The notes under the pieces: generated by a model
What the model saw: the letters and a program-made list of their open reading frames with translations, nothing else
What the model was told of the DNA's origin: nothing
Databases searched by the model: none
Position numbers and translations under genes: made by a program
Shown: positions 6,120 to 16,880 of the stretch, one piece after another
Position numbering within the stretch: position 1 is the stretch's first letter
Layout: the number at the start of each line of letters is the position of its first letter
NCBI GenBank assembly: GCA_965226495.1
Contig: OZ245365.1
Coordinates: 2,144,001-2,208,000 of the forward strand
Source: Candidatus Marinacidobacterales bacterium
GTDB lineage: Bacteria; Acidobacteriota; Vicinamibacteria; Marinacidobacterales; DATDRI01
DNA length: 64,000 nt
Reading direction: 5' to 3'

Positions 6120-7796
6120 ATGGGATTGCAAGGCCAACTTCACGAGATGCCCTTTGTGGACATCCTCCAGCTAGTGGCCTTTTCACAGAAAAACGGTTAC
6201 CTGTACATCGACGGTCCGTTCGGCCTAGGCACCGTCGTTTTCAGAGACGGGAAAGTAGTCTGCGCCTACGCCTGGTCGACGCTCGATTACGTTCGCCGAA
6301 TCGCGGCGGGACAGTACGAGGAAGGTCAGAAAGACGCGGTCATCCAGGAGGTGGTCGAGACCTCCTTGCGCGAAATGGCCCGCTTGCAGGAGGGCAACTT
6401 CCATTTTCAAGTGGCCCACAAGATAGCGCCGGAGCTACATAGCGTAGACATTTCCGCGTTTCTCAGCTCCCCCGGCATCAATGCGCAAGGGCTGTTGCTC
6501 GAATTGAGCCGAGAGCTCGACGAGGATCGTCGCGATACGACCGCCATGTTGGAGTCTGGCTTCCAGCTAGAGACCGAACCACCGATTCCCGTCGAAGCCA
6601 CACCCCCGGCAGCTGGGGTCGACTCGTCCAAGGTTCCCGGCATGGTGGACCCCATGCCGCCCGGTGCACTGGACGAACCGGGTCTAGACCCAACCCGCAC
6701 CCAAGTAATGGCTCCGGTCGGTTCGCTCGACGACCCGCTTTCTACCCCGCTCCGTCACGAGGGATCCACAGTGGTCGTGGTGGACGACGAGCCCGTTGTT
6801 GCCGAGGTCGTAGGAGAAGAGCTCGAGGCGAATGGTTACCAGGTGTTCACCGCAACCACACCCCTACAAGGTGCAAACCTCGCCAAGGAAAGGGTAGCAG
6901 AAGGCGAGCACGTCTTGGTCGTCAGCGATCTAAAGATGCCGACCACGACCGGCAAGAGTTTCTTCGGAGGTTTCGAAGTGGCTCGTCGCGTCCGAAAGCT
7001 AGAGAAGCCGGTACCGGTTTTACTGATGGTGGAGGAACTCTCCGACAAAGCGCGCCGACGAGCGATCGAGCTCGGAATTCGCAAGGTGGCTTTCAAACCG
7101 GCGTTATCGAAACTGGATATCGGGCAGTACAAATCCGATCTCCGCCTTTTCGGCCATGCCATCTTACGCGAGCTGGCCGAGCTGGCGCCGCATCAATCAC
7201 CACCGGAAAGGCAGGAGCAAGGGGCGGGGGACGGAGGGTCCGTCGACGGAAACCAGATCCTGGAGTTCCTCGCTTCGATGACGGAGCAGCTGATCGATCC
7301 CCGTCGCTCGGTGGATATTTCCCGAATGGTGCTGCAAGCGGCGGAAAGATTCTTCGAGCGCGGCATCTTGTTTCTCTTGAAGAACGAACGTGCGTCTGGT
7401 TTGAGTGGTTTCGGGTTGGCCAAGAGCGAACGGGACAATGTCGCTCTCGCACAGAAGCTGTCGATTGGTATCGAGTCCACCGCGCCTGTGCAAGACGTCG
7501 TCACGCGTCGGAAAACCCGGACTCTGGATGCGGAGCTGGATTTGCTGGAGCCAGGCCTTTTTACTCACGTCGGCCGAGGACGAGCCGCTGAAGCAGCGTT
7601 GGTCCCGATGCTCAATAATGCCGAAGTGCTTCTTATTCTCTACGGTGACAACGGACTCACCGGAAAACCACTCACCTCCCTGACCGCCCTCGAGGTCTTT
7701 ATGGGCCAAGCCGGAATGGCGTTGGAGAACGTGTTCCTACAGGGCAAGCTTCGTTCCCTGGATGCGAAGCTTTCAGTGGGCGAAGTCAAGGAATGA
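6120..7796 (+). CDS. DUF4388 (PATAN-like) domain + receiver domain + GAF-like domain signalling protein
   Basis: N-terminal MGLQGQLHEMPFVDILQLV...GYLYI...EGNFHF (DUF4388 pattern); receiver VVVVDDE...VSDLKMP...AFKP; C-terminal GAF-like LVPML...LILYGDN...LEVFMGQAGMALEN. Confidence 0.75.
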   Translation: MGLQGQLHEMPFVDILQLVAFSQKNGYLYIDGPFGLGTVVFRDGKVVCAYAWSTLDYVRRIAAGQYEEGQKDAVIQEVVETSLREMARLQEGNFHFQVAHKIAPELHSVDISAFLSSPGINAQGLLLELSRELDEDRRDTTAMLESGFQLETEPPIPVEATPPAAGVDSSKVPGMVDPMPPGALDEPGLDPTRTQVMAPVGSLDDPLSTPLRHEGSTVVVVDDEPVVAEVVGEELEANGYQVFTATTPLQGANLAKERVAEGEHVLVVSDLKMPTTTGKSFFGGFEVARRVRKLEKPVPVLLMVEELSDKARRRAIELGIRKVAFKPALSKLDIGQYKSDLRLFGHAILRELAELAPHQSPPERQEQGAGDGGSVDGNQILEFLASMTEQLIDPRRSVDISRMVLQAAERFFERGILFLLKNERASGLSGFGLAKSERDNVALAQKLSIGIESTAPVQDVVTRRKTRTLDAELDLLEPGLFTHVGRGRAAEAALVPMLNNAEVLLILYGDNGLTGKPLTSLTALEVFMGQAGMALENVFLQGKLRSLDAKLSVGEVKE

Positions 7797-7806
7797 GGAC
7801 TGGTTG

Positions 7807-8175
7807 ATGGAGAAAAGAAAAAGTGACCGCCTGCAGCCGCTGGTAATACGCACCATGTGGACGTACCAAGAGAATGAAAATTCAGGCTATCTTACGAACT
7901 TGAGCGAGAAAGGCACCTTCCTGGCCACCGACGACCCGATCCCGATTGGGGACACGGTTAACCTCGACATCACGCTCCCTTGGCAGATTGGCGAGATCAC
8001 GTTAGATAGCGTGGTCGAATGGACGAGCGTCGATTCCCCGCAGCGTACGGCAGACCATCCTCTAGGAGTGGGTCTTTCTTTCGGGGACCTGCCTGAGGAG
8101 GCGGGCGAAAAAATCGAAGCCTTCATTCACCGGTTCCACGAACTGGTCGCACAGCTCGAGGATATGCCCACCTAG
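7807..8175 (+). CDS. PilZ domain protein
   Basis: RKSDR (RxxxR) and NLSEKG (D/NxSxxG) motifs, then VVEW...GVGLSF; SD GAGGA upstream. Confidence 0.85.
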   Translation: MEKRKSDRLQPLVIRTMWTYQENENSGYLTNLSEKGTFLATDDPIPIGDTVNLDITLPWQIGEITLDSVVEWTSVDSPQRTADHPLGVGLSFGDLPEEAGEKIEAFIHRFHELVAQLEDMPT

Positions 8176-10185: not shown

Positions 10186-11136
10186 ATGCGGATCATCGAA
10201 GAAGAGAAGCTGAGAGATTAGATCAAGGCACCCGAGGCATTGGAATCGGCGGAGCGAGCCTTTCGCGCGTTGGCCGAGGGACGCGTGGAGCAACCGCCTC
10301 CGATGGCGCTGGATGTAGCCCCGGTCCGGGGAGAAGTACATGTGAAGGGGGCCTACTTAACGGGATCGAAGTTCTTCGCCATCAAGGTCGCTTCTGGTTT
10401 TTATGGCAACACCGACAAGAATCTACCCACCGGGTCGGGCCTGGTGTTGGTCTTCGACGCGGAGACCGGGTTTCCGCTAGCGCTATTGCGGGACAACGCG
10501 TACCTGACCGATCTGCGAACCGCCGCGGCGGGGGCCCTGGCGGCTCGGCTTCTTGCCCCCACGTCGGTGGCGCGGGTCGCGATGTTGGGAAGCGGGGTTC
10601 AGGCTAGATACCAGCTTCGGGCCATCGCTCGAGTGTGTGAGTTCGAAGGTGTCGCCGTCTGGAGTCCCCATCGCGACCGCGTGGCGTCCTACTGCCAGGA
10701 GATGCGAGGTGTGAGCTCGGGAAAACAGTCGCGCCGGCCGACACTCCGGAGCAGGCCCTGCGGGGGGCGCAATTGGTCGTGACCTGCACCCCGTCCCGGG
10801 AGCCGCTGGTGCAAAGCGCATGGTTGGAGTCCGACGCGACGATCATTGCCGTGGGCTCCGACGGACCCGACAAGCAGGAGCTAACTGCCGAGGTGATTGC
10901 CGGGGCCGACAAGGTTGTTGCCGACCGGTTTTCGCAAATGCGTTCGCTTGGGAGAGATCCACCATGCGGTGGAGGCGGATCTTTTCAAAGAAGAGGACCT
11001 TCACGCCGAGCTCGGTGAGGTCCTGATCGGACGCCAGGCGGGCCGTGTGGGGAAAGAACTGATCGTCTGTGACCTGACCGGCGTAGGGGCGCAGGACGCC
11101 GCCATAGCGGAAGTCGCTTGGGAACGGTCAGGGTGA
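10186..11136 (+). pseudogene. Ornithine cyclodeaminase/mu-crystallin family gene, disrupted (in-frame TAG plus two frameshifts) or mis-assembled
   Basis: MRIIEEEKLRD-TAG(10219-10221)-IKAPEALESAERAF...LTDLRTAAAG...GSGVQA; shift near 10705-10713 to ELGKTV...VVTCTPS...AVGSD; shift near 10936-10938 to CVRLGEIHHA...DLTGVGAQDAAIA. Confidence 0.85.
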
Positions 11137-12531
11137 AGCCAGCCCCGCGGCCACTGTGCGCTGCGAGTATCCGTTCTTCTTCGCCTCTTCGAGCGTGTCT
11201 TGGTAGCTGCGATAGATTCGCCGGAGCTCCAATCTGAGCAAGGGCGACGAAACGCCTTTGTCGCGCGCCCGTACCCGTAGCTCACGCTCAGCATGTTCGA
11301 CTCCCGGCCACAATTGGCCCTTCATAGATTCGACCATGTGTTCGTCGTATCCGAAGCCGAATCCCACGATGCTAGGCAACGGTACCTCGTACTTGTCGCT
11401 GAGGCCGAGCGCAGCGAACGGGAAACCATGGGCCCAATCGAGATGGTGTCCAATGAGCATCTTCTTCGGATTCACCGAAATGAGCCCGTGCGGTACGGAG
11501 TTGGCGTCAGGGATATCATAGTGGGCCCGCAACATATCGGTGAGATTCATGGCGGCCTGAATCTGGGCCGGCGTCAGTAGCTCCGCTTCGTTCGCCCCTG
11601 CCTTCCACGCACTTTCGAAACATACGCCTAAGAAGCTGTCGTTCAGATCGAGATAGTAGTTATCGTCGTCGGCCCAGATGGATCGGCCGGCGTGGTACGC
11701 CACGTCGGACTCCTCGACGAGCCGGTAGATGCGACCGAACCGATCGATCAGGTAGTGATAGTTGCCGTGCTTACGTAGCCAGCGAAGGAGGCCGCGGGTG
11801 TTCCGAAGAATGGAGCTGGTCTGCCCAGGCTCGAAGGGAGCGATGTCGCTCTCGCTGGTGTGGTAGACGATGCCGGCTGGCTTGTCCTCGACGAAAGCCG
11901 GGTCGCCGCCGTCGCGGGGGAAGACGAGGTAGCGGCGCTTCTCGGTGCTCACCTTATAGGAGGTGAGTATTCTCAGCCCGTTGCTCCATAGTTCACCTTG
12001 CGGTGCCGCTTCCACCTGCCAAACCTTCTCGGGGGCCATACCCACCCGTGACGTCGGATAGCCGGCCGCAGGCGCGTCGCGGCGCCGTCCGCGTCCGCGG
12101 GGCGAGGGCTGGGTGGAGGTGAAGGGCGGCCACATCTGCGCGACGAGACTTACGCCTTTGCGCGCCGCCCGGTAGCCGCGGGGGCCGAGCGAGTATCCAA
12201 GAGAGGCCACTCCCGCAAGGAGAAGGACCAGGACGACCTTGCGAGCACGGTAGAGGGCCCAACTCGGCTGCGGTAGCGCAGGCACCGGGCCCAGTCGTCG
12301 TTCGTTGCTCAGTTCTTCCAAGGCTTCGAAACAGGCGAGGCGTACCGCGACCGGCTTCAGCAAGCTCGATCTACGGAGAAGCCCAGGCTGCTTTTCGTAC
12401 ACTTCCAGCGTTCGCTGGATGAAGCGGAGCTTGCTTCCCGGGTCCTGGATCGAGGGTGCGACGCTTTCGATGGCCCTTTGGAGCTGTCGTTCCGGGAGAG
12501 GGACCGGCTTGGGTTTTTTCATCGCACCCAC
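11128..12531 (-). CDS. Membrane-anchored N-acetylmuramoyl-L-alanine amidase (Amidase_2/PGRP fold)
   Basis: TM segment VVLVLLLAGVASLGY; Zn-amidase motifs IVYHTSE, YHYLIDRFGRIYRLV, AYHAGRS, LNDSFLGVCFE, TPAQI, PHG, HLD. Alternative ATG at 12522. Confidence 0.82.
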   Translation of the reverse strand: MGAMKKPKPVPLPERQLQRAIESVAPSIQDPGSKLRFIQRTLEVYEKQPGLLRRSSLLKPVAVRLACFEALEELSNERRLGPVPALPQPSWALYRARKVVLVLLLAGVASLGYSLGPRGYRAARKGVSLVAQMWPPFTSTQPSPRGRGRRRDAPAAGYPTSRVGMAPEKVWQVEAAPQGELWSNGLRILTSYKVSTEKRRYLVFPRDGGDPAFVEDKPAGIVYHTSESDIAPFEPGQTSSILRNTRGLLRWLRKHGNYHYLIDRFGRIYRLVEESDVAYHAGRSIWADDDNYYLDLNDSFLGVCFESAWKAGANEAELLTPAQIQAAMNLTDMLRAHYDIPDANSVPHGLISVNPKKMLIGHHLDWAHGFPFAALGLSDKYEVPLPSIVGFGFGYDEHMVESMKGQLWPGVEHAERELRVRARDKGVSSPLLRLELRRIYRSYQDTLEEAKKNGYSQRTVAAGLASP

Positions 12532-12597
12532 CCCGCGGCCCCGCCCGGTGTGCGCGACGGGAAGGTGCTCGGTTTCACGAATTACGGATACAGGGCA

Positions 12598-13620
12598 CTA
12601 TGAGTCGTTGACGGCGGCGACGAGGGCTCCAGCGGCGGTAGCCTGCATGGGTCGTGGCGACAATCTCACCTCAGAAACCTCGATCGGACACTTCGATTCT
12701 TTCAGGACGGTCTCGAACTTCTCCCGGAAACCCTTGGGCCGAGCCGTTCCGCCGGCGAGCACAACGGGGACCGCTCGATCCAGCTTGGGAACGTTGGACG
12801 CCTTTCCGAAGGCCTCATTCAAGTTCGTAACCAGGGTTTGAATGACGTCGTCATAGTAGATGTGCAAGGCCTCTTCCACCTTGTCGCTCGGTTTACGGGA
12901 GAGATCGAGGGAAGCCTCCTTGATCATTTTTACCCTGGTAGCGGATTCACCGGTCACTGAGCCCACGCTACGATCGATATAATCGCCCGCCTTGGTTGTG
13001 CTAAAGGAAAGGACGGGAACCGACAAGAACGCCAGGCACACGTTGCACATGCCTCCCCCCGCGGAGACTCCGATTCCGGTGAAGCTCTCCTTTTCGAGCT
13101 CAGAATACACAATGGCTTGCCCTTCGTTGATGCTCTTGACTCGATAGCCCAGCTCTGTGAGAAACTTCTTCAGGAACTCCTCGTGGTAGATCAAGTCGCT
13201 CGGTGCTTCGACCGGTGCGCTGGGCACCGAGAAGCAGATGAGCTCTTCTCTGCTTTTCGGTTTTTTCACTAGCCCCTTGATGATGACCTTGATGAGGGTG
13301 AGCGCCGAAGGCTCGTTCGGGTTGATGAGCCCACGACTCATCGGCCGACGTGTCTCCGCGTTGAAGAGGCTCGCGAATTTTTCCGCGCTATTCCCGTAGA
13401 CGAAGAAGTGGCCGTTCTCCTGGTAGTAGTGCACCTTGTTCTGCAGGAGGATGTTCTCGGTAATACGGGAATAGGGAAGGGGAATGAAAGCGTTGACTTC
13501 GACGGATGCCTGGAGCTCACGTCCGGTGCGGCGGGCGACCAAGATCTTGCTGGTCCCGACATCCAGCCCGATTCGGCCTTCCGCGCTCGGAACGACGCTC
13601 TGGGTTTTTGGGTTCTCCAT
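12598..13620 (-). CDS. Actin-fold ATPase, volactin/Mad28-like (paralog B)
   Basis: Phosphate-1 IGLDVGTS, ETRRPMSRG, SVPSAP...YHE, connect-1 INEGQA, phosphate-2 GIGVSAGGG, AGDYID, adenosine VLAGGT, connect-2 PMQATAAGAL. Confidence 0.85.
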   Translation of the reverse strand: MENPKTQSVVPSAEGRIGLDVGTSKILVARRTGRELQASVEVNAFIPLPYSRITENILLQNKVHYYQENGHFFVYGNSAEKFASLFNAETRRPMSRGLINPNEPSALTLIKVIIKGLVKKPKSREELICFSVPSAPVEAPSDLIYHEEFLKKFLTELGYRVKSINEGQAIVYSELEKESFTGIGVSAGGGMCNVCLAFLSVPVLSFSTTKAGDYIDRSVGSVTGESATRVKMIKEASLDLSRKPSDKVEEALHIYYDDVIQTLVTNLNEAFGKASNVPKLDRAVPVVLAGGTARPKGFREKFETVLKESKCPIEVSEVRLSPRPMQATAAGALVAAVNDS

Positions 13621-13640
13621 GGCTTTGTCCTCTAATTAAT

Positions 13641-14118
13641 GCGAGTGGGCTCCTCGCCCACTCGCTGGCCCTCGCTCTTCGCTCGGGCCTAAAACCACGG
13701 CCGCATTCCCTTGCGCGCCGTATGTTGCCATCGCAATTCCTCGCGGCCGACGGGCCCGTTGCTGCTCGCGGGGCTATCGCCCACGCATTTCCCTCGGGCT
13801 TCCGCAACGGCGTTGGGGCCCCACCCCCAACGCTTGATGCTCCGTCGCCTTCGCGACTGCGCATGGGCTCAAGGCTGCGCTCGGCCTTCCTTCGGCGGGC
13901 GGGTTCCCTTGAGCACTTCTATTCATTGACTCAATTCCTCCTGGCCGATGGCCCTGACGGGCCCGTTCGTGCGCGCGGGCTCCTCATCCACGCGTTTACC
14001 TAATTTGCTCATCATTCATCAATTGCCTGGGGCCCCACCCCCAGGCTTGTCGCTTCGGCGGCTGCGCGCCTGCGCGACGGCTGAAGGCTCCCCGGCCGAT
14101 GGCCCTGACGGGCCCGTT
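13641..14118. repeat. Structured intergenic repeat array (REP-like hairpins, two to three imperfect units)
   Basis: Identical 25-mer GGCCGATGGCCCTGACGGGCCCGTT at 13943 and 14094 (shortened copy at 13745); CAATTCCTC at 13734 and 13932; hairpins with a CCCCAC loop at 13810-13833 and 14025-14046; perfect 10-bp stem at 13641-13665; GCTCAAGG/CCTTGAGC stem at 13867-13914. Confidence 0.85.
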
Positions 14119-15187
14119 AGTTGTCATACATGGCTGCGAGCAGGGCACCCCGAGCCGTGGCTGTCAAGGGATCCTTACCCAAGCGTACACCGGCCAACTG
14201 AATCGGAAGCTTCTGCGCCGTTAGGGCCCGGTCGAAGTTCAGCTTGAACCCTTTCGGGAGGGCGCTGCCTCCCGCCAGTACCACCGGCAGAGGATGGTCC
14301 AGTTTCGGCATGTTCTGGGTTCGGGCAAGCGCCTCCTCGATACCCTCGACCACGGTTGTAATCAAATCCTCGTAATAGATGTGGAGGGCGCCCTCGATCT
14401 TGGTCTTGGGCTTGCGATTGAGATCGAGCCCCTCTTCCTTGATGGCCCGAACCCTCGTCGCGGTCTCGCCACTCACTTTGCCGACCGCCTCGTCGATATC
14501 GTCTCCGCCTTTTCCGATCGCGAAAGAAAACACCGGCACGGAGAGATAGGCGAGCGAGACGTTGGTCAAGCCGCCGCCAAAGCTGATGCCGATGCCGGAG
14601 AAGTTCTCCTTCTCCAGTTCGGAGAAGACCACTGCCAACCCTTCGTTGATGCTCTTGGCCTCGTAGCCCATGCTTTCCAACATTTGTTTTATCAAGGCTT
14701 CATGGTAAACGAGACTCGTACGCCCCTTGAGCGGCTTGCCGGGAACGCTGTAGCAAATCACGCTCCCTTTCGGTTTCTTGGGGCCGAGCAATTTCTTGAC
14801 GATGACCTGAAGAAGTTTTTGGGCGTACGGCTCTGTCGCGTTGACCAGACCGTGGCGCATCGGCCGTCTGGTCTCGGCGTTGAACATGTTTGCGAATTTC
14901 GCTGCGCCGTTGCCGTAAACGACGATCCGACGGCCCGCACGGACGAAATCGATATCGTTCTGGTCCAGAATCTGTTCGGTAAATTTCGAAGGGGGGAGAT
15001 CGATGAACGCGTTCAACTCGCGCGCGGAACGGAATCCCTTTCCGTTCTTGCGTGCGGTCACCACGGTGCTGGTGCCGAGGTCGAGCCCCGCAGCATGGCC
15101 GTTCGAAACTCTGCCATTCGAACTCGAACGGGTCGGAGTTTTTCGACCCTTGGAGGCACTCTTCCTAATGGTTTTTCTCGAAACCAT
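14117..15187 (-). CDS. Actin-fold ATPase, volactin/Mad28-like (paralog A, with basic N-terminal extension)
   Basis: GLDLGTS, FANMFNAETRRPMRHG, SVPG...YHE, INEGLAVVFSEL, GIGISFGGG, GGDDID, VLAGGS, DPLTATARGALLAA; SD AAGGTGG upstream. Confidence 0.85.
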   Translation of the reverse strand: MVSRKTIRKSASKGRKTPTRSSSNGRVSNGHAAGLDLGTSTVVTARKNGKGFRSARELNAFIDLPPSKFTEQILDQNDIDFVRAGRRIVVYGNGAAKFANMFNAETRRPMRHGLVNATEPYAQKLLQVIVKKLLGPKKPKGSVICYSVPGKPLKGRTSLVYHEALIKQMLESMGYEAKSINEGLAVVFSELEKENFSGIGISFGGGLTNVSLAYLSVPVFSFAIGKGGDDIDEAVGKVSGETATRVRAIKEEGLDLNRKPKTKIEGALHIYYEDLITTVVEGIEEALARTQNMPKLDHPLPVVLAGGSALPKGFKLNFDRALTAQKLPIQLAGVRLGKDPLTATARGALLAAMYDN

Positions 15188-15306
15188 GGTCCACCTTCTT
15201 TTCGTGAGCTCCGCAGAGGTCGTTTTAGAGGAACTTCGCCGCCTTGGGCAGTACCCGCCCAGGAATCAGTATGTATAGAAGGTACTATCGGATCAGAAGC
15301 TAGAAA

Positions 15307-15335
15307 ATCGTAGCATCATGCCAACTTCCTGTCAA
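15307..15335 (-). promoter_or_regulatory. Sigma70-type promoter for the actin-like gene pair
   Basis: Minus strand TTGACA-17 nt-TACGAT with an extended TGn before the -10, about 120 nt upstream of the ATG at 15187. Confidence 0.7.
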
Positions 15336-15452
15336 CCGGCTCAGAAACTACTTTATTTGTTGGAGTTACAGGCCGATTGCCGTCCTTGTCGCCGGGGTGG
15401 GAAAAAAACTACACGTCAATAAAATGGCTTCGTTTCTATAAGCCTCGCCCTT

Positions 15453-15526
15453 CCGCCTACGCTAAAGCTACGGCGAGACCACGCCTTCGCCGTTGTCGCA
15501 CCGAGCACGTTCCAACGGCGAAGGCG
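15453..15526. repeat. REP-like palindromic element
   Basis: CCGCCTACGCTAAAGCTACGGCG small hairpin followed by a perfect 14-bp stem CGCCTTCGCCGTTG (15482-15495) / CAACGGCGAAGGCG (15513-15526). Confidence 0.7.
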
Positions 15527-15537
15527 GGCACTCCTCA

Positions 15538-15546
15538 TGCTATACT
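15538..15546 (+). promoter_or_regulatory. Extended -10 element upstream of the DAACS transporter
   Basis: TGCTATACT, 35 nt upstream of the ATG at 15582. Confidence 0.5.
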
Positions 15547-15581
15547 GCCGCGGTTTTTCTAGTTCACGTCGCGCAACTCAG

Positions 15582-16880
15582 ATGGCACCAGAAGCAAAAG
15601 GAACCCCTCTCCACACGAAGATCCTGATCGGCTTCGTGGTCGGCGGTGCGGCGGGCGTGACGGTGAACCAGCTCACCGCGACCGGGACCATTCGCTACTC
15701 GACCCTGGAATGGTTCGTGGCAAACGTGACCGCCCCGATCGGTCAGATCTTTCTGAATCTACTCTTCATGGTCGTCATTCCGATCGTGTTCTGTTCTTTG
15801 TCGCTGGGCGTTGCACGGTTGGGCAATGTGGGGAAGCTCGGCCGCCTTGGCGCGAAGACCTTCGGCTATTTTCTAGTGACCAGCACGATCTCGGTAGCCA
15901 TCGGGGTGACAATGGTGAATATGTTGCGGCCGGGTGAGGGCTTCGACCCGGAGACGCAACGAGCGCTCATGGAAAAATTCGGAGGACAAGCCGAGCAACG
16001 AGCAACCATTGCCGGAGACGGCAAGTTTTGGCCCGACATGTTAGTGGGCATGGTGAGTCGCAACCCGATACGTGACGCCGCCGAGACCCAAATGCTACCG
16101 ATCATTGTTTTCGCAATCCTCTTCGGCTTGGCACTCACGATGATTCCTCGCGAGCGCGCCGAGCCAACGATCAAAGTGCTCGATGGGATCGGAGATGCGA
16201 TGGTTGTCATCGTCGGGTTCGCCATGCGGATCGCCCCTTTTGCCGTGCCGGCGCTAATCTTCGATGTTACGGCCCTTTTCGGCTGGGAGATTCTCAGGCA
16301 ACTCTCTTTTTACGTCATCATTGTTTTGGTTGGCTATCTCCTGCATCTATTCGGCACGTTCTCGGTGCTGCTGCGAGTCTTCGCCCGTTATTCGCCCGGG
16401 CGGTTTTTCAAGAAGATGATTCCGGTCATGGTTACTGCGTTTTCCACGAGTTCCTCGAACGCCACGCTGCCGACGACGATCAAGACCAGCGAGGAAGAGT
16501 TAGGTGTGCCTTCGGAGATCGCAGGCTTTGTTCTCCCTCTCGGTGCAACGATCAACATGAATGGGAGCTCCTTGTTCGCGAGCGTGGTCGTACTCTTTGT
16601 CGCTCAGGTGTTCGGGGTCGAGTTGTCTCTGGGGACGCAGTTCTTGGTGGTCTTGCTCTCCGTGTTCACGGCGGTGGGGGCGGCGGGGGTGCCCGGTGGA
16701 GCGATTCCCTTGTTGGTCGTGGTCTTGGAAATGGTTGGCGTTCCGGGCGAGGGCATAGCCATCATCATCGGGGTGGATCGTATTCTAGACATGGGGCGCA
16801 CGGTGGTGAACGTTACGGGTGACGCCGCCGCGGCGTGCTTCATTGCGAGCAGCGAAGGTTATCCCTTGAAGATCGGCTAG
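15582..16880 (+). CDS. Dicarboxylate/amino acid:cation symporter (DAACS, GltP/DctA family)
   Basis: FSTSSSNATLP serine motif, LPLGATINMNGS (NMDG variant), GAAGVPG, DRILDMGRTVVNVTGD. Confidence 0.93.
   Translation: MAPEAKGTPLHTKILIGFVVGGAAGVTVNQLTATGTIRYSTLEWFVANVTAPIGQIFLNLLFMVVIPIVFCSLSLGVARLGNVGKLGRLGAKTFGYFLVTSTISVAIGVTMVNMLRPGEGFDPETQRALMEKFGGQAEQRATIAGDGKFWPDMLVGMVSRNPIRDAAETQMLPIIVFAILFGLALTMIPRERAEPTIKVLDGIGDAMVVIVGFAMRIAPFAVPALIFDVTALFGWEILRQLSFYVIIVLVGYLLHLFGTFSVLLRVFARYSPGRFFKKMIPVMVTAFSTSSSNATLPTTIKTSEEELGVPSEIAGFVLPLGATINMNGSSLFASVVVLFVAQVFGVELSLGTQFLVVLLSVFTAVGAAGVPGGAIPLLVVVLEMVGVPGEGIAIIIGVDRILDMGRTVVNVTGDAAAACFIASSEGYPLKIG

Follow-up and report, generated by a model that had tools for sequence, protein, structure and literature searches.

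A twin-actin operon of the volactin family with a predicted membrane-spanning peptidoglycan amidase in a Marinacidobacterales chromosome

Among bacterial actins, MreB guides the building of the wall, FtsA division, ParM plasmids, and MamK and Mad28 magnetosomes. The DNA described here is a 64,000-nucleotide (nt) window of contig OZ245365.1 (positions 2,144,001 to 2,208,000 of the forward strand) from a Candidatus Marinacidobacterales bacterium. It carries three neighboring minus-strand genes that encode two paralogous actins, called A and B, and a peptidoglycan amidase. Within the actin superfamily the locus appears to belong to the volactin branch, as a bacterial form coupled to an amidase. 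The trio is kept together in many genomes, which suggests a bacterial cytoskeleton, so far unstudied, that probably directs wall cleavage from the cytoplasm. The genes and their parts lie as follows, in window coordinates.

14117-15187, minus strand: gene of paralogue A (356 amino acids); PF25216 match with E 1.4e-84, residues 32-352 on profile positions 2-321 of 321
12598-13620, minus strand: gene of paralogue B (340 amino acids); PF25216 match with E 1.9e-80, residues 17-336
11128-12531, minus strand: gene of the amidase protein (467 amino acids from a GTG start); Pfam Amidase_2, PF01510
15307-15335, minus strand: predicted extended -10 promoter of the sigma-70 type for the operon, from a consensus scan and an alignment of genomes of the order
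15188-15306, minus strand: 5' leader of about 120 nt, with blocks kept within the family in alignments
15089-15187, minus strand: polybasic disordered N-terminal tail of A, residues 1-33, with nine Lys or Arg and no Asp or Glu
13621-14116, strand unspecified: 496-nt spacer between A and B, with about two copies of an intergenic repeat that is dispersed in the genome
12247-12531, minus strand: N-terminal helical domain of the amidase protein, residues 1-95, with the motif DPxxKLxF; proposed filament docking site
12181-12243, minus strand: predicted transmembrane helix of the amidase protein, residues ~97-117, a single hydrophobic segment
11446-11877, minus strand: Amidase_2 catalytic domain, residues 219-362, from Pfam
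11167-12030, minus strand: C-terminal, predicted periplasmic part of the amidase protein, residues 168-455, from an AlphaFold model

A and B are actin-fold proteins of the Pfam family Volactin (PF25216). They match its model over the full length with 284.8 bits (A, profile positions 2-321) and 271.2 bits (B, positions 3-321) against a cut-off of 35, and a genome search found these two genes to be the only PF25216 genes of the source genome. The paralogues are 52% identical over 320 residues (E 6e-123). An earlier reading of the locus, made from sequence alone, had described two co-oriented actin paralogues by their motifs, all of which are present in the translations: GLDLGTS in A and GLDVGTS in B, INEGLA and INEGQA, GISFGGG and GVSAGGG, together with the VVLAGG, FNAETRRPM, YHE and ALHIYY blocks. 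The nucleotide-binding motifs are intact save for a family-wide change in phosphate-2, where Ser stands in place of Asp (S202 in A, S186 in B). This replacement, also noticed earlier, is invariant in 31 of 31 aligned relatives, and the Ser aligns to the Asp of the MamK motif DiGAGTTD. With Ser in that place, the phosphate-1, connect-1, phosphate-2, adenosine and connect-2 motifs are invariant in the same 31 relatives; other nucleotide-binding residues (D36, E182 and G306-G307) are likewise invariant. Further evidence comes from structure prediction. An AlphaFold model of A, with a predicted local distance difference test score (pLDDT) of 87.4 overall and below 50 in residues 1-27, has as its best solved structures in Foldseek MreB, MamK (template modeling score 0.70), BeeR (0.71) and actin. 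The Foldseek matches listed (ranks 1-50) are filament-forming actins or actin-fold proteins in filament complexes, with no Hsp70 and no sugar kinase among them.

Better known actins do not account for A and B. MreB is ruled out by a score of 37.2 bits with the TIGR00904 mreB model (cut-off 365.75), by the true MreB of the source genome (500 bits), which is encoded 0.5 Mb from the A-B locus, and by the lack of mreC and mreD among the scanned ORFs (open reading frames) of the window. MamK is ruled out by 22 bits for A and 29.9 bits for B against a cut-off of 400 in the NCBIfam model; the source genome has no MamK, its best match to that model being MreB with 70.8 bits. A ParM or Alp identity is rejected because the locus is a chromosomal housekeeping one, no ParR-type adaptor family occurs among the scanned neighbors, and no ParM model is among the best Pfam and NCBIfam matches of A or B. 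The match of A and B to salactin is far under the family cut-off. Thus, the sequence-only reading was right to name volactin rather than MreB or MamK. It was also right about the neighborhood: none of the mre, fts, par, mam or mobile-element families was found among the 53 window ORFs scanned with Pfam. The surrounding window is ordinary housekeeping chromosome.

The product of the third gene is predicted to be a bitopic membrane protein, consisting of an N-terminal helical domain, one transmembrane helix and a zinc-amidase domain like those of AmiD and AmpD. The public protein collection holds it as a 464-amino-acid form whose start is an ATG at 12522. The gap from the B stop to the amidase start is thus 66 nt, as first stated, when counted from the GTG and 75 nt when counted from the ATG. 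The match to Amidase_2 has an E-value of 6e-16 (59.3 bits, cut-off 26) and, taken with the single transmembrane helix, upholds the earlier description of a membrane-anchored amidase. In the AlphaFold model (pLDDT 84.5) a four-helix domain (residues 15-76; helices 15-27, 31-46, 50-54 and 59-76, pLDDT 87-90) is followed by the membrane helix (97-117), a disordered linker and a well-predicted part (168-455). A beta-rich pre-domain (residues 168-215) and a C-terminal helical extension are conserved. The catalytic-domain fold matches AmiD (2bh7, E 1e-6), AmpD (2y28), AmpDh2 and AmpDh3 in Foldseek. Amidases of this type have two His and an Asp or Cys as zinc ligands, and a catalytic Glu; in AmpD the ligands are His, His and Asp. 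All 31 sequences of the protein family described here share H224, H280, E306, H348, H363 and D365; the HAG, E306 and H348 blocks line up with E. coli AmiD, and D365 and H363, either of which is a candidate third zinc ligand, sit after an insertion relative to AmiD. Over 31 orthologues the 15 residues before the membrane helix hold on average 3.26 Lys and Arg, and the 15 residues after it 1.58. Since the N-side flank is twice as rich in these residues, the protein is predicted to lie with its N-terminus inside and its C-terminus outside, which would place the enzyme in the periplasm.

The N-terminal domain that would then face the cytoplasm is conserved across classes, from Acidobacteriota to Desulfobacterales, with the motif DPxxKLxF and with P31 and L35 invariant. 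A profile of this domain searched against 1.84 billion cluster representatives found 174 of them, and a single-sequence search with the amidase N-terminus found 5 close relatives only. The proteins of at least 250 amino acids were then scanned with Pfam. Among these 51 proteins 37 carry Amidase_2, one carries Amidase_3, and 13, mostly short, have no Pfam match. The Amidase_3 case (P0228, 486 amino acids) joins a Desulfobacterales-type N-terminal domain and membrane helix to an unrelated catalytic domain; for its locus a search of 401 Desulfobacterales genomes matched generic Amidase_3 only, and a metagenome scan found no relative. The 37 Amidase_2 proteins, together with the one unrelated Amidase_3, suggest that amidase activity is the selected trait. 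Elsewhere the source genome has two ordinary Amidase_3 genes, and its only Amidase_2 is the copy at this locus.

The three genes lie behind one conserved, predicted promoter. It reads TTGACA, a 17-nt spacer and TACGAT with TG before it (15335-15307), matches 10 of 12 consensus positions, and is the only such site that a consensus scan found in 11000-15600, where shuffled sequences average 0.7. The near-consensus sigma70 promoter reported earlier is therefore of the extended -10 type. All 13 aligned genomes of the order have kept it, with the -35 bases, the TG, and -10 positions 1, 2 and 6 invariant or almost so; one row of the alignment has a 1-nt gap in the -35. This is the case even though the genes are saturated at synonymous sites. 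Immediately before the -35 lies another block (AAGTAGnTTCTGAGCCGG; 15336-15360, minus strand) that is conserved across the order and may be a regulator site. A hairpin was predicted in the leader, and 0 of its 11 pairs show compensatory changes, so no RNA structure is claimed; Rfam gave nothing above threshold in 11000-15600. Terminator-like sites are absent from the minus strand between the genes; the five found are all on the plus strand and at chance level.

Seven short contigs from two metatranscriptome runs of one study fall on A and B with 95-100% identity, and one of them extends to 15269, which is 82 nt upstream of the A start. As DNA carry-over may account for them, these contigs are only a weak hint of expression. 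None of the RNA-library contigs falls on the amidase gene, an absence of cover that is uninformative. The spacer between A and B measures 496 nt in this genome vs ~65-135 nt between the Pfam matches in most orthologous loci. It contains internal repeats ~200 nt apart and amounts to about two copies of a genome-wide dispersed intergenic repeat, which has 48 matches across the genome and a ~70-nt core with a GGGGCCCC-centered palindrome. DNA contigs of two studies break in this spacer, and depth there rises 4-5 fold.

Is the association of actin and amidase peculiar to this genome? It appears not to be. A search of species-representative genomes found 539 relatives, and the question was addressed with the best 79 loci among them. 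A same-strand amidase gene lies beside the actin gene in 77 of these 79, Desulfobacterales included, with a median gap of 154 nt between the matches, and one of the two unlinked loci ends at a contig edge. The gene order differs between lineages, the amidase coming first in 58 of the linked loci and the actin in 19. Within the order of the source genome the arrangement A-B-amidase occurs in 12 of 14 loci; one further locus has a fragmented amidase gene displaced by 2.3 kb, and another has remnants only. In the single-copy loci of other acidobacterial classes the amidase gene is adjacent in 10 of 13. In Desulfobacterales, PF25216 was found in 42 of 301 genomes, and the amidase gene lies within 1.5 kb in 16 of 30 loci. 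In a tree, the actins linked to an amidase cluster across the two phyla, and a 14-member clade without amidase stands separate from them (support 97). Judging from these loci and the tree, the actin-amidase pairing has been kept across classes and phyla.

In some lineages the amidase-linked actin carries an additional domain. HU (PF00216) is fused N-terminally to it in 16 of 26 long forms, in L067 and L069, and in 7 of 120 listed homologues; the HU-fused actins form one Blastocatellia-rich clade of nine rows in an IQ-TREE tree. Loci of this Blastocatellia type that bear HU are L067, L069, L087, L089, L108, L110, L113, L114, L118, L119, L123, L127, L128, L131, L132, L134, L141 and L146, and the amidase gene precedes the HU-actin gene in all those listed but L089. 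Other neighbors occur as well. Wall-related ones are a SPOR-domain gene upstream of the amidase gene in L062 (10680-11921) and L063 (10782-11969), and a class A penicillin-binding protein gene that adjoins an actin without amidase linkage in L060 (5771-7993). ParA/MinD-like genes follow the actin gene in L065 and L066, and one of those two actins is joined to a receiver domain of the response-regulator type. In two Vicinamibacteria a pair of STAND-like ATPase genes comes after the actin-amidase pair, and an integrase or recombinase gene flanks L064 and L059.

The tandem of two actins characterizes the order. In a sample of Acidobacteriota PF25216 was found in 14 of 401 genomes, and the other 13 have one match each. 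In the order of the source genome it is present in 21 of 55 genomes. Two of the families have it in 6 of 7 and in 14 of 19 genomes, and a third, whose genomes are small, in 0 of 28. Two adjacent copies are present in 19 of the 21 positive genomes, and a single partial match in the remaining 2. (One unpublished genome, G403, is counted among the 21; apparently its contig is that of L073, which is one row in the promoter alignments and one of the 79 loci, and it is the sole support of no claim.) A tree of 59 sequences was built with IQ-TREE from A and B of 11 genomes and 37 single-copy relatives, disrupted copies and unchosen loci being left out. The A sequences form one clade and the B sequences another, each with support 100. 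The two clades are sisters (Shimodaira-Hasegawa-like approximate likelihood ratio test, 90) with stems of 0.52 and 0.51 and mirrored branching; in a larger FastTree the sisterhood of A and B is unresolved.

Both actin copies are under purifying selection, as judged from Nei-Gojobori ratios of nonsynonymous to synonymous change (omega) in the 35 of 55 pairs whose synonymous divergence (dS) in A is below 1.5, three only of which are unsaturated (dS < 1). Over the 35 pairs omega ranges from 0.07 to 0.23 for A, 0.05 to 0.18 for B and 0.13 to 0.44 for the amidase; in the three unsaturated pairs the ranges are 0.07-0.08, 0.05-0.06 and 0.18-0.19. The numbers of invariant columns among 363 are nearly the same (180 in A and 178 in B), and fixed A-B differences occur at 22 positions. 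Neither copy shows the relaxed selection that had been raised as a possible sign against a two-subunit system, and neither the tandem nor the amidase linkage is unique to the source genome. The clearest difference between the copies, in the aligned sequences, is the N-terminus. In 11 of 11 orthologues A has a disordered tail of 20-34 amino acids with 5-12 Lys and Arg and 0-2 Asp and Glu, and in 11 of 11 B has a tail of 12-18 amino acids with 1-2 Lys and Arg that is neutral or slightly acidic. The polybasic tail is therefore always in A and never in B. A search found no longer, fused forms of B, which is weak evidence.

The operon has been lost in a sister species, to judge from its remnants. 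In a genome of the same genus (G405, locus L057) two deletions removed the counterparts of window 11450-13361 and 14672-15532. Of A the C-terminal half is left, of B the first ~86 codons and of the amidase gene the last ~107, and the genes on either side are intact. A third genome of the genus has no PF25216 match.

What would two actins do beside a wall hydrolase? The identity of the parts is secure, while how they work together we infer from the conserved linkage, from the predicted bitopic architecture with its conserved cytoplasmic domain, and from analogy with MreB-RodZ, ParM-ParR and the CdpA-like neighbor of volactin. A and B would polymerize, probably together, into cytoplasmic filaments. 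The filament would bind the N-terminal domain of the amidase protein, much as in MreB-RodZ and ParM-ParR, and would cluster, position or switch on the periplasmic enzyme, which may then cleave peptide stems from peptidoglycan at selected places as cells grow, divide or separate. A duplication specific to the order would have split the subunit roles, with A gaining a polybasic tail that could bind DNA or acidic membrane and B keeping the short-tailed form. On balance we lean, by a little, toward this model, in which the filament docks on the conserved cytoplasmic domain of the amidase protein and so places or gates peptidoglycan cleavage in the periplasm.

Several known systems resemble parts of this proposal. 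MreB-RodZ, an actin filament with a bitopic membrane adaptor that steers wall enzymes, follows the logic proposed here: the filament lies in the cytoplasm, is held there by the N-terminal domain of a membrane protein with a single pass, and acts on peptidoglycan metabolism. MreB is also among the best structural matches of A. However, A and B are not MreB, no mreC or mreD is at the locus, and the proposed adaptor would be the enzyme itself, a hydrolase rather than a synthase. FtsEX-EnvC/NlpD control septal amidases of the Amidase_3 type. The likeness to that system is a cytoplasmic NTPase that would control periplasmic amidase activity, but the proteins are unrelated, an actin-type filament would be the controller here, and the amidase is predicted to span the membrane itself. 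AmiD, AmpD and AmpDh2-3 share the fold of the catalytic domain and its conserved blocks. In contrast to them, the amidase protein described here has an extra 95-residue cytoplasmic domain, a transmembrane helix, the beta-rich pre-domain and the C-terminal helical extension, and is encoded beside an actin in 77 of the 79 best loci.

Volactin itself is the closest comparison among archaea. The volactin of Haloferax volcanii (VolA, HVO_2015) forms dynamic filaments whose tips contact the membrane, and salactin, another haloarchaeal actin, aids DNA partitioning, according to the available part of PMC10869688. A gene for a CdpA-like membrane protein, HVO_2016, adjoins volactin in that species (available part of PMC12126565). 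A and B belong to the same Pfam family over their full length, have the actin fold, and likewise have a membrane-protein gene adjoining. The contact of volactin tips with the membrane would fit a membrane adaptor, and it is therefore counted as a likeness to the amidase-linked actins. The differences are that the host here is a bacterium with a peptidoglycan wall, that the neighbor is a peptidoglycan amidase and not a four-helix CdpA-like protein, and that there are two diverged paralogues vs one gene, a comparison made through the Pfam model rather than the HVO_2015 sequence.

A second relative is Mad28 of the magnetosome. In the part of PMC10653835 that was available, Mad28 has the same change of phosphate-2 Asp to Ser (xxxSxGxGxx) and polymerizes in vitro; a curvature-dependent localization is given in the accessible part of a J Bacteriol paper. 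True MamK is present in 10 of the 42 PF25216-positive Desulfobacterales genomes, and in five of them (G609, G617, G662, G725 and G750) a PF25216 actin lies 8-35 kb from MamK on the same contig. These MamK-linked actins score 250-270 bits, carry the motif GIGISxGGG with the same Ser, and fall in the clade without amidase. Because they match PF25216 and share the Ser of Mad28, Mad28 very probably belongs to the Pfam Volactin family, the MamK-linked proteins being equated with Mad28 from context and not from a named sequence. A literature search found no paper that names both Mad28 and volactin. The kinship with Mad28 that the sequence-only reading had suspected thus holds indirectly, at the level of family and Ser; A and B themselves are not Mad28. 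They share the replacement but fall in the amidase-linked clade, apart from the Mad28-like one (support 97), in a genome that has no MamK and no magnetosome genes nearby, so an identity with Mad28 is ruled out. The suggestion that the filament might position an organelle is left without support, and a role with magnetosomes or another organelle was rejected, because the genome has no MamK.

A number of observations weigh against the docking model. Polymerization, co-assembly of A with B and binding of the amidase are all deduced from sequence and analogy. The alignment with AmiD leaves the third zinc ligand (D365 or H363) unmapped, and the helix flanks of the source protein itself hold 3 vs 4 Lys and Arg, by which its topology is undecided. 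With its repeats, the 496-nt spacer could break the coupling of A to B and the amidase in the source genome. Four of the 12 A-B-amidase loci in the order have matches that fall into different frames, whether through decay of the genes or through errors of assembly. Some lineages can dispense with the module, which is patchy in the phylum (14 of 401 genomes), was not found in one family of the order (0 of 28) and has been destroyed by deletions in a genome of the same genus. Finally, the HU fusions (16 of 26 long forms; L067 and L069) and the tail of A point to DNA, which positioning at the wall would not by itself explain.

The last of these points leads to the best surviving alternative, in which DNA is a further or a different partner, as the HU fusions and the basic tail suggest. 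The filament may mainly move, tether or partition DNA, with the amidase protein serving chiefly as a wall-bound anchor for its tips and catalysis being secondary. Such a role is consistent with the HU domain fused to amidase-linked actins, also seen in 7 of 120 listed homologues, with the 5-12 Lys and Arg in the tail of A in 11 of 11 orthologues, with the ParA/MinD-like genes after the actin in L065 and L066, and with haloarchaeal precedent, in that volactin touches the membrane with its tips only and salactin aids partitioning (PMC10869688, available part). Against this, the catalytic-type residues invariant in 31 of 31 sequences and the swap to Amidase_3 speak for an enzyme activity under selection and not for anchoring alone, HU domain and basic tail are both missing from most amidase-linked actins, and a polybasic tail is equally able to bind acidic lipids. 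We consider a mainly nucleoid-directed filament unlikely, though worth keeping in view. It could also be combined with docking on the amidase, in that chromosome position would be coupled to wall cleavage. In its boldest form this combination would have a single heteropolymeric filament of A and B bridge nucleoid and cell wall, its other end or face docked on the cytoplasmic domain of the membrane-spanning amidase; A would hold DNA by its histone-like tail, and the single-copy Blastocatellia form by its fused HU; and chromosome position or segregation state would dictate where and when the wall is cut. All three parts together make a speculative proposal, to which we give a rather low probability. 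If true, it would be an actin-based counterpart to nucleoid occlusion that acts on a hydrolase.

Another possibility is that the linkage reflects co-regulation and no physical coupling: an ordinary turnover amidase of the AmiD/AmpD type would be in one operon or regulon with an actin whose own task, such as cell shape, is a different one. This amidase is the sole Amidase_2 of the genome, its best structural matches are turnover amidases, and its binding to the actin is itself a proposal. However, the linkage has outlived an inversion of gene order and a transfer between phyla (77 of 79 loci; 16 of 30 in Desulfobacterales), a conserved cytoplasmic domain of ~95 residues has no role in a free periplasmic enzyme, and those proteins of at least 250 residues with this domain that have any Pfam match all carry an amidase (38 of 51, the other 13 being without a match). 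Simple co-regulation is accordingly judged improbable. Phage, defense and plasmid readings were rejected on the PHROG, PADLOC and window-ORF scans, and a mobile-element cargo, that is, a ParM-like segregation actin with a phage endolysin, is already largely refuted and highly unlikely: the amidase domain weakly matches endolysin PHROGs, volactin-family clusters occur in phages too, and relatives L064 and L059 have an integrase or recombinase gene beside them, but A and B have no PHROG or PADLOC match, the housekeeping window has no mobile-element family among its 53 scanned ORFs, the flanking genes are syntenic across the order, and the A and B trees mirror each other. Hardly any likelihood is left for A and B as non-polymerizing members of the acetate and sugar kinase/Hsc70/actin (ASKHA) superfamily, chaperone-like or kinase-like and ATPase-dead through the loss of the phosphate-2 Asp, an idea to which a BcrAD_BadFG match under its cut-off (E 0.057) may be added; the Ser is family-wide, the Ser-bearing Mad28 polymerizes in vitro (PMC10653835, available part), the remaining nucleotide-binding residues D36, E182 and G306-G307 are invariant, and the predicted fold matches filament-forming actins rather than Hsp70 or sugar kinases in ranks 1-50.

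A literature search on volactin, Mad28 and acidobacterial actins found no paper describing an actin encoded with its own membrane-spanning wall hydrolase. If the coupling of filament and amidase is real, it would be a new way for a cell to control a dangerous periplasmic enzyme from the cytoplasm, in two abundant, poorly studied phyla. Archaeal volactin and the magnetosome actin Mad28 would be tied into one widespread family that uses membrane adaptors. New here are the order-wide twin paralogues, one form tailed and the other untailed, together with the conservation of the promoter, the variants that carry HU or Amidase_3, the position given to Mad28-like proteins and the disappearance of the operon from a sister species. 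The tailed and untailed subunits of the order may serve as a natural experiment on the division of tasks among actin paralogues.

Some genes near the operon deserve mention. A small PilZ-domain gene lies at 7762-8175 on the plus strand and occurs in L058, L059, L067, L069 and other loci too; of 106 loci, 26 that belong to three separate lineages have a PilZ gene within a few kb of the module. It may provide a cyclic di-GMP input, or its position may be due to chance. Directly before it is a plus-strand gene for a protein with DUF4388 and a receiver domain (6120-7796). The ornithine cyclodeaminase/mu-crystallin gene (10240-11018, plus strand) is in two overlapping frames, 10240-10782 and 10773-11018, both matching PF02423, and is either a frameshifted pseudogene or an assembly indel error. 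At the A end of the operon a sodium:dicarboxylate symporter gene (15537-16880) occupies the place where one family of the order has divergent genes for an extracytoplasmic function (ECF) sigma factor. In that arrangement, seen in L045 (10404-12087), L053 (10355-11996) and their relatives, the ECF sigma factor gene and two unknown genes are divergent from A.

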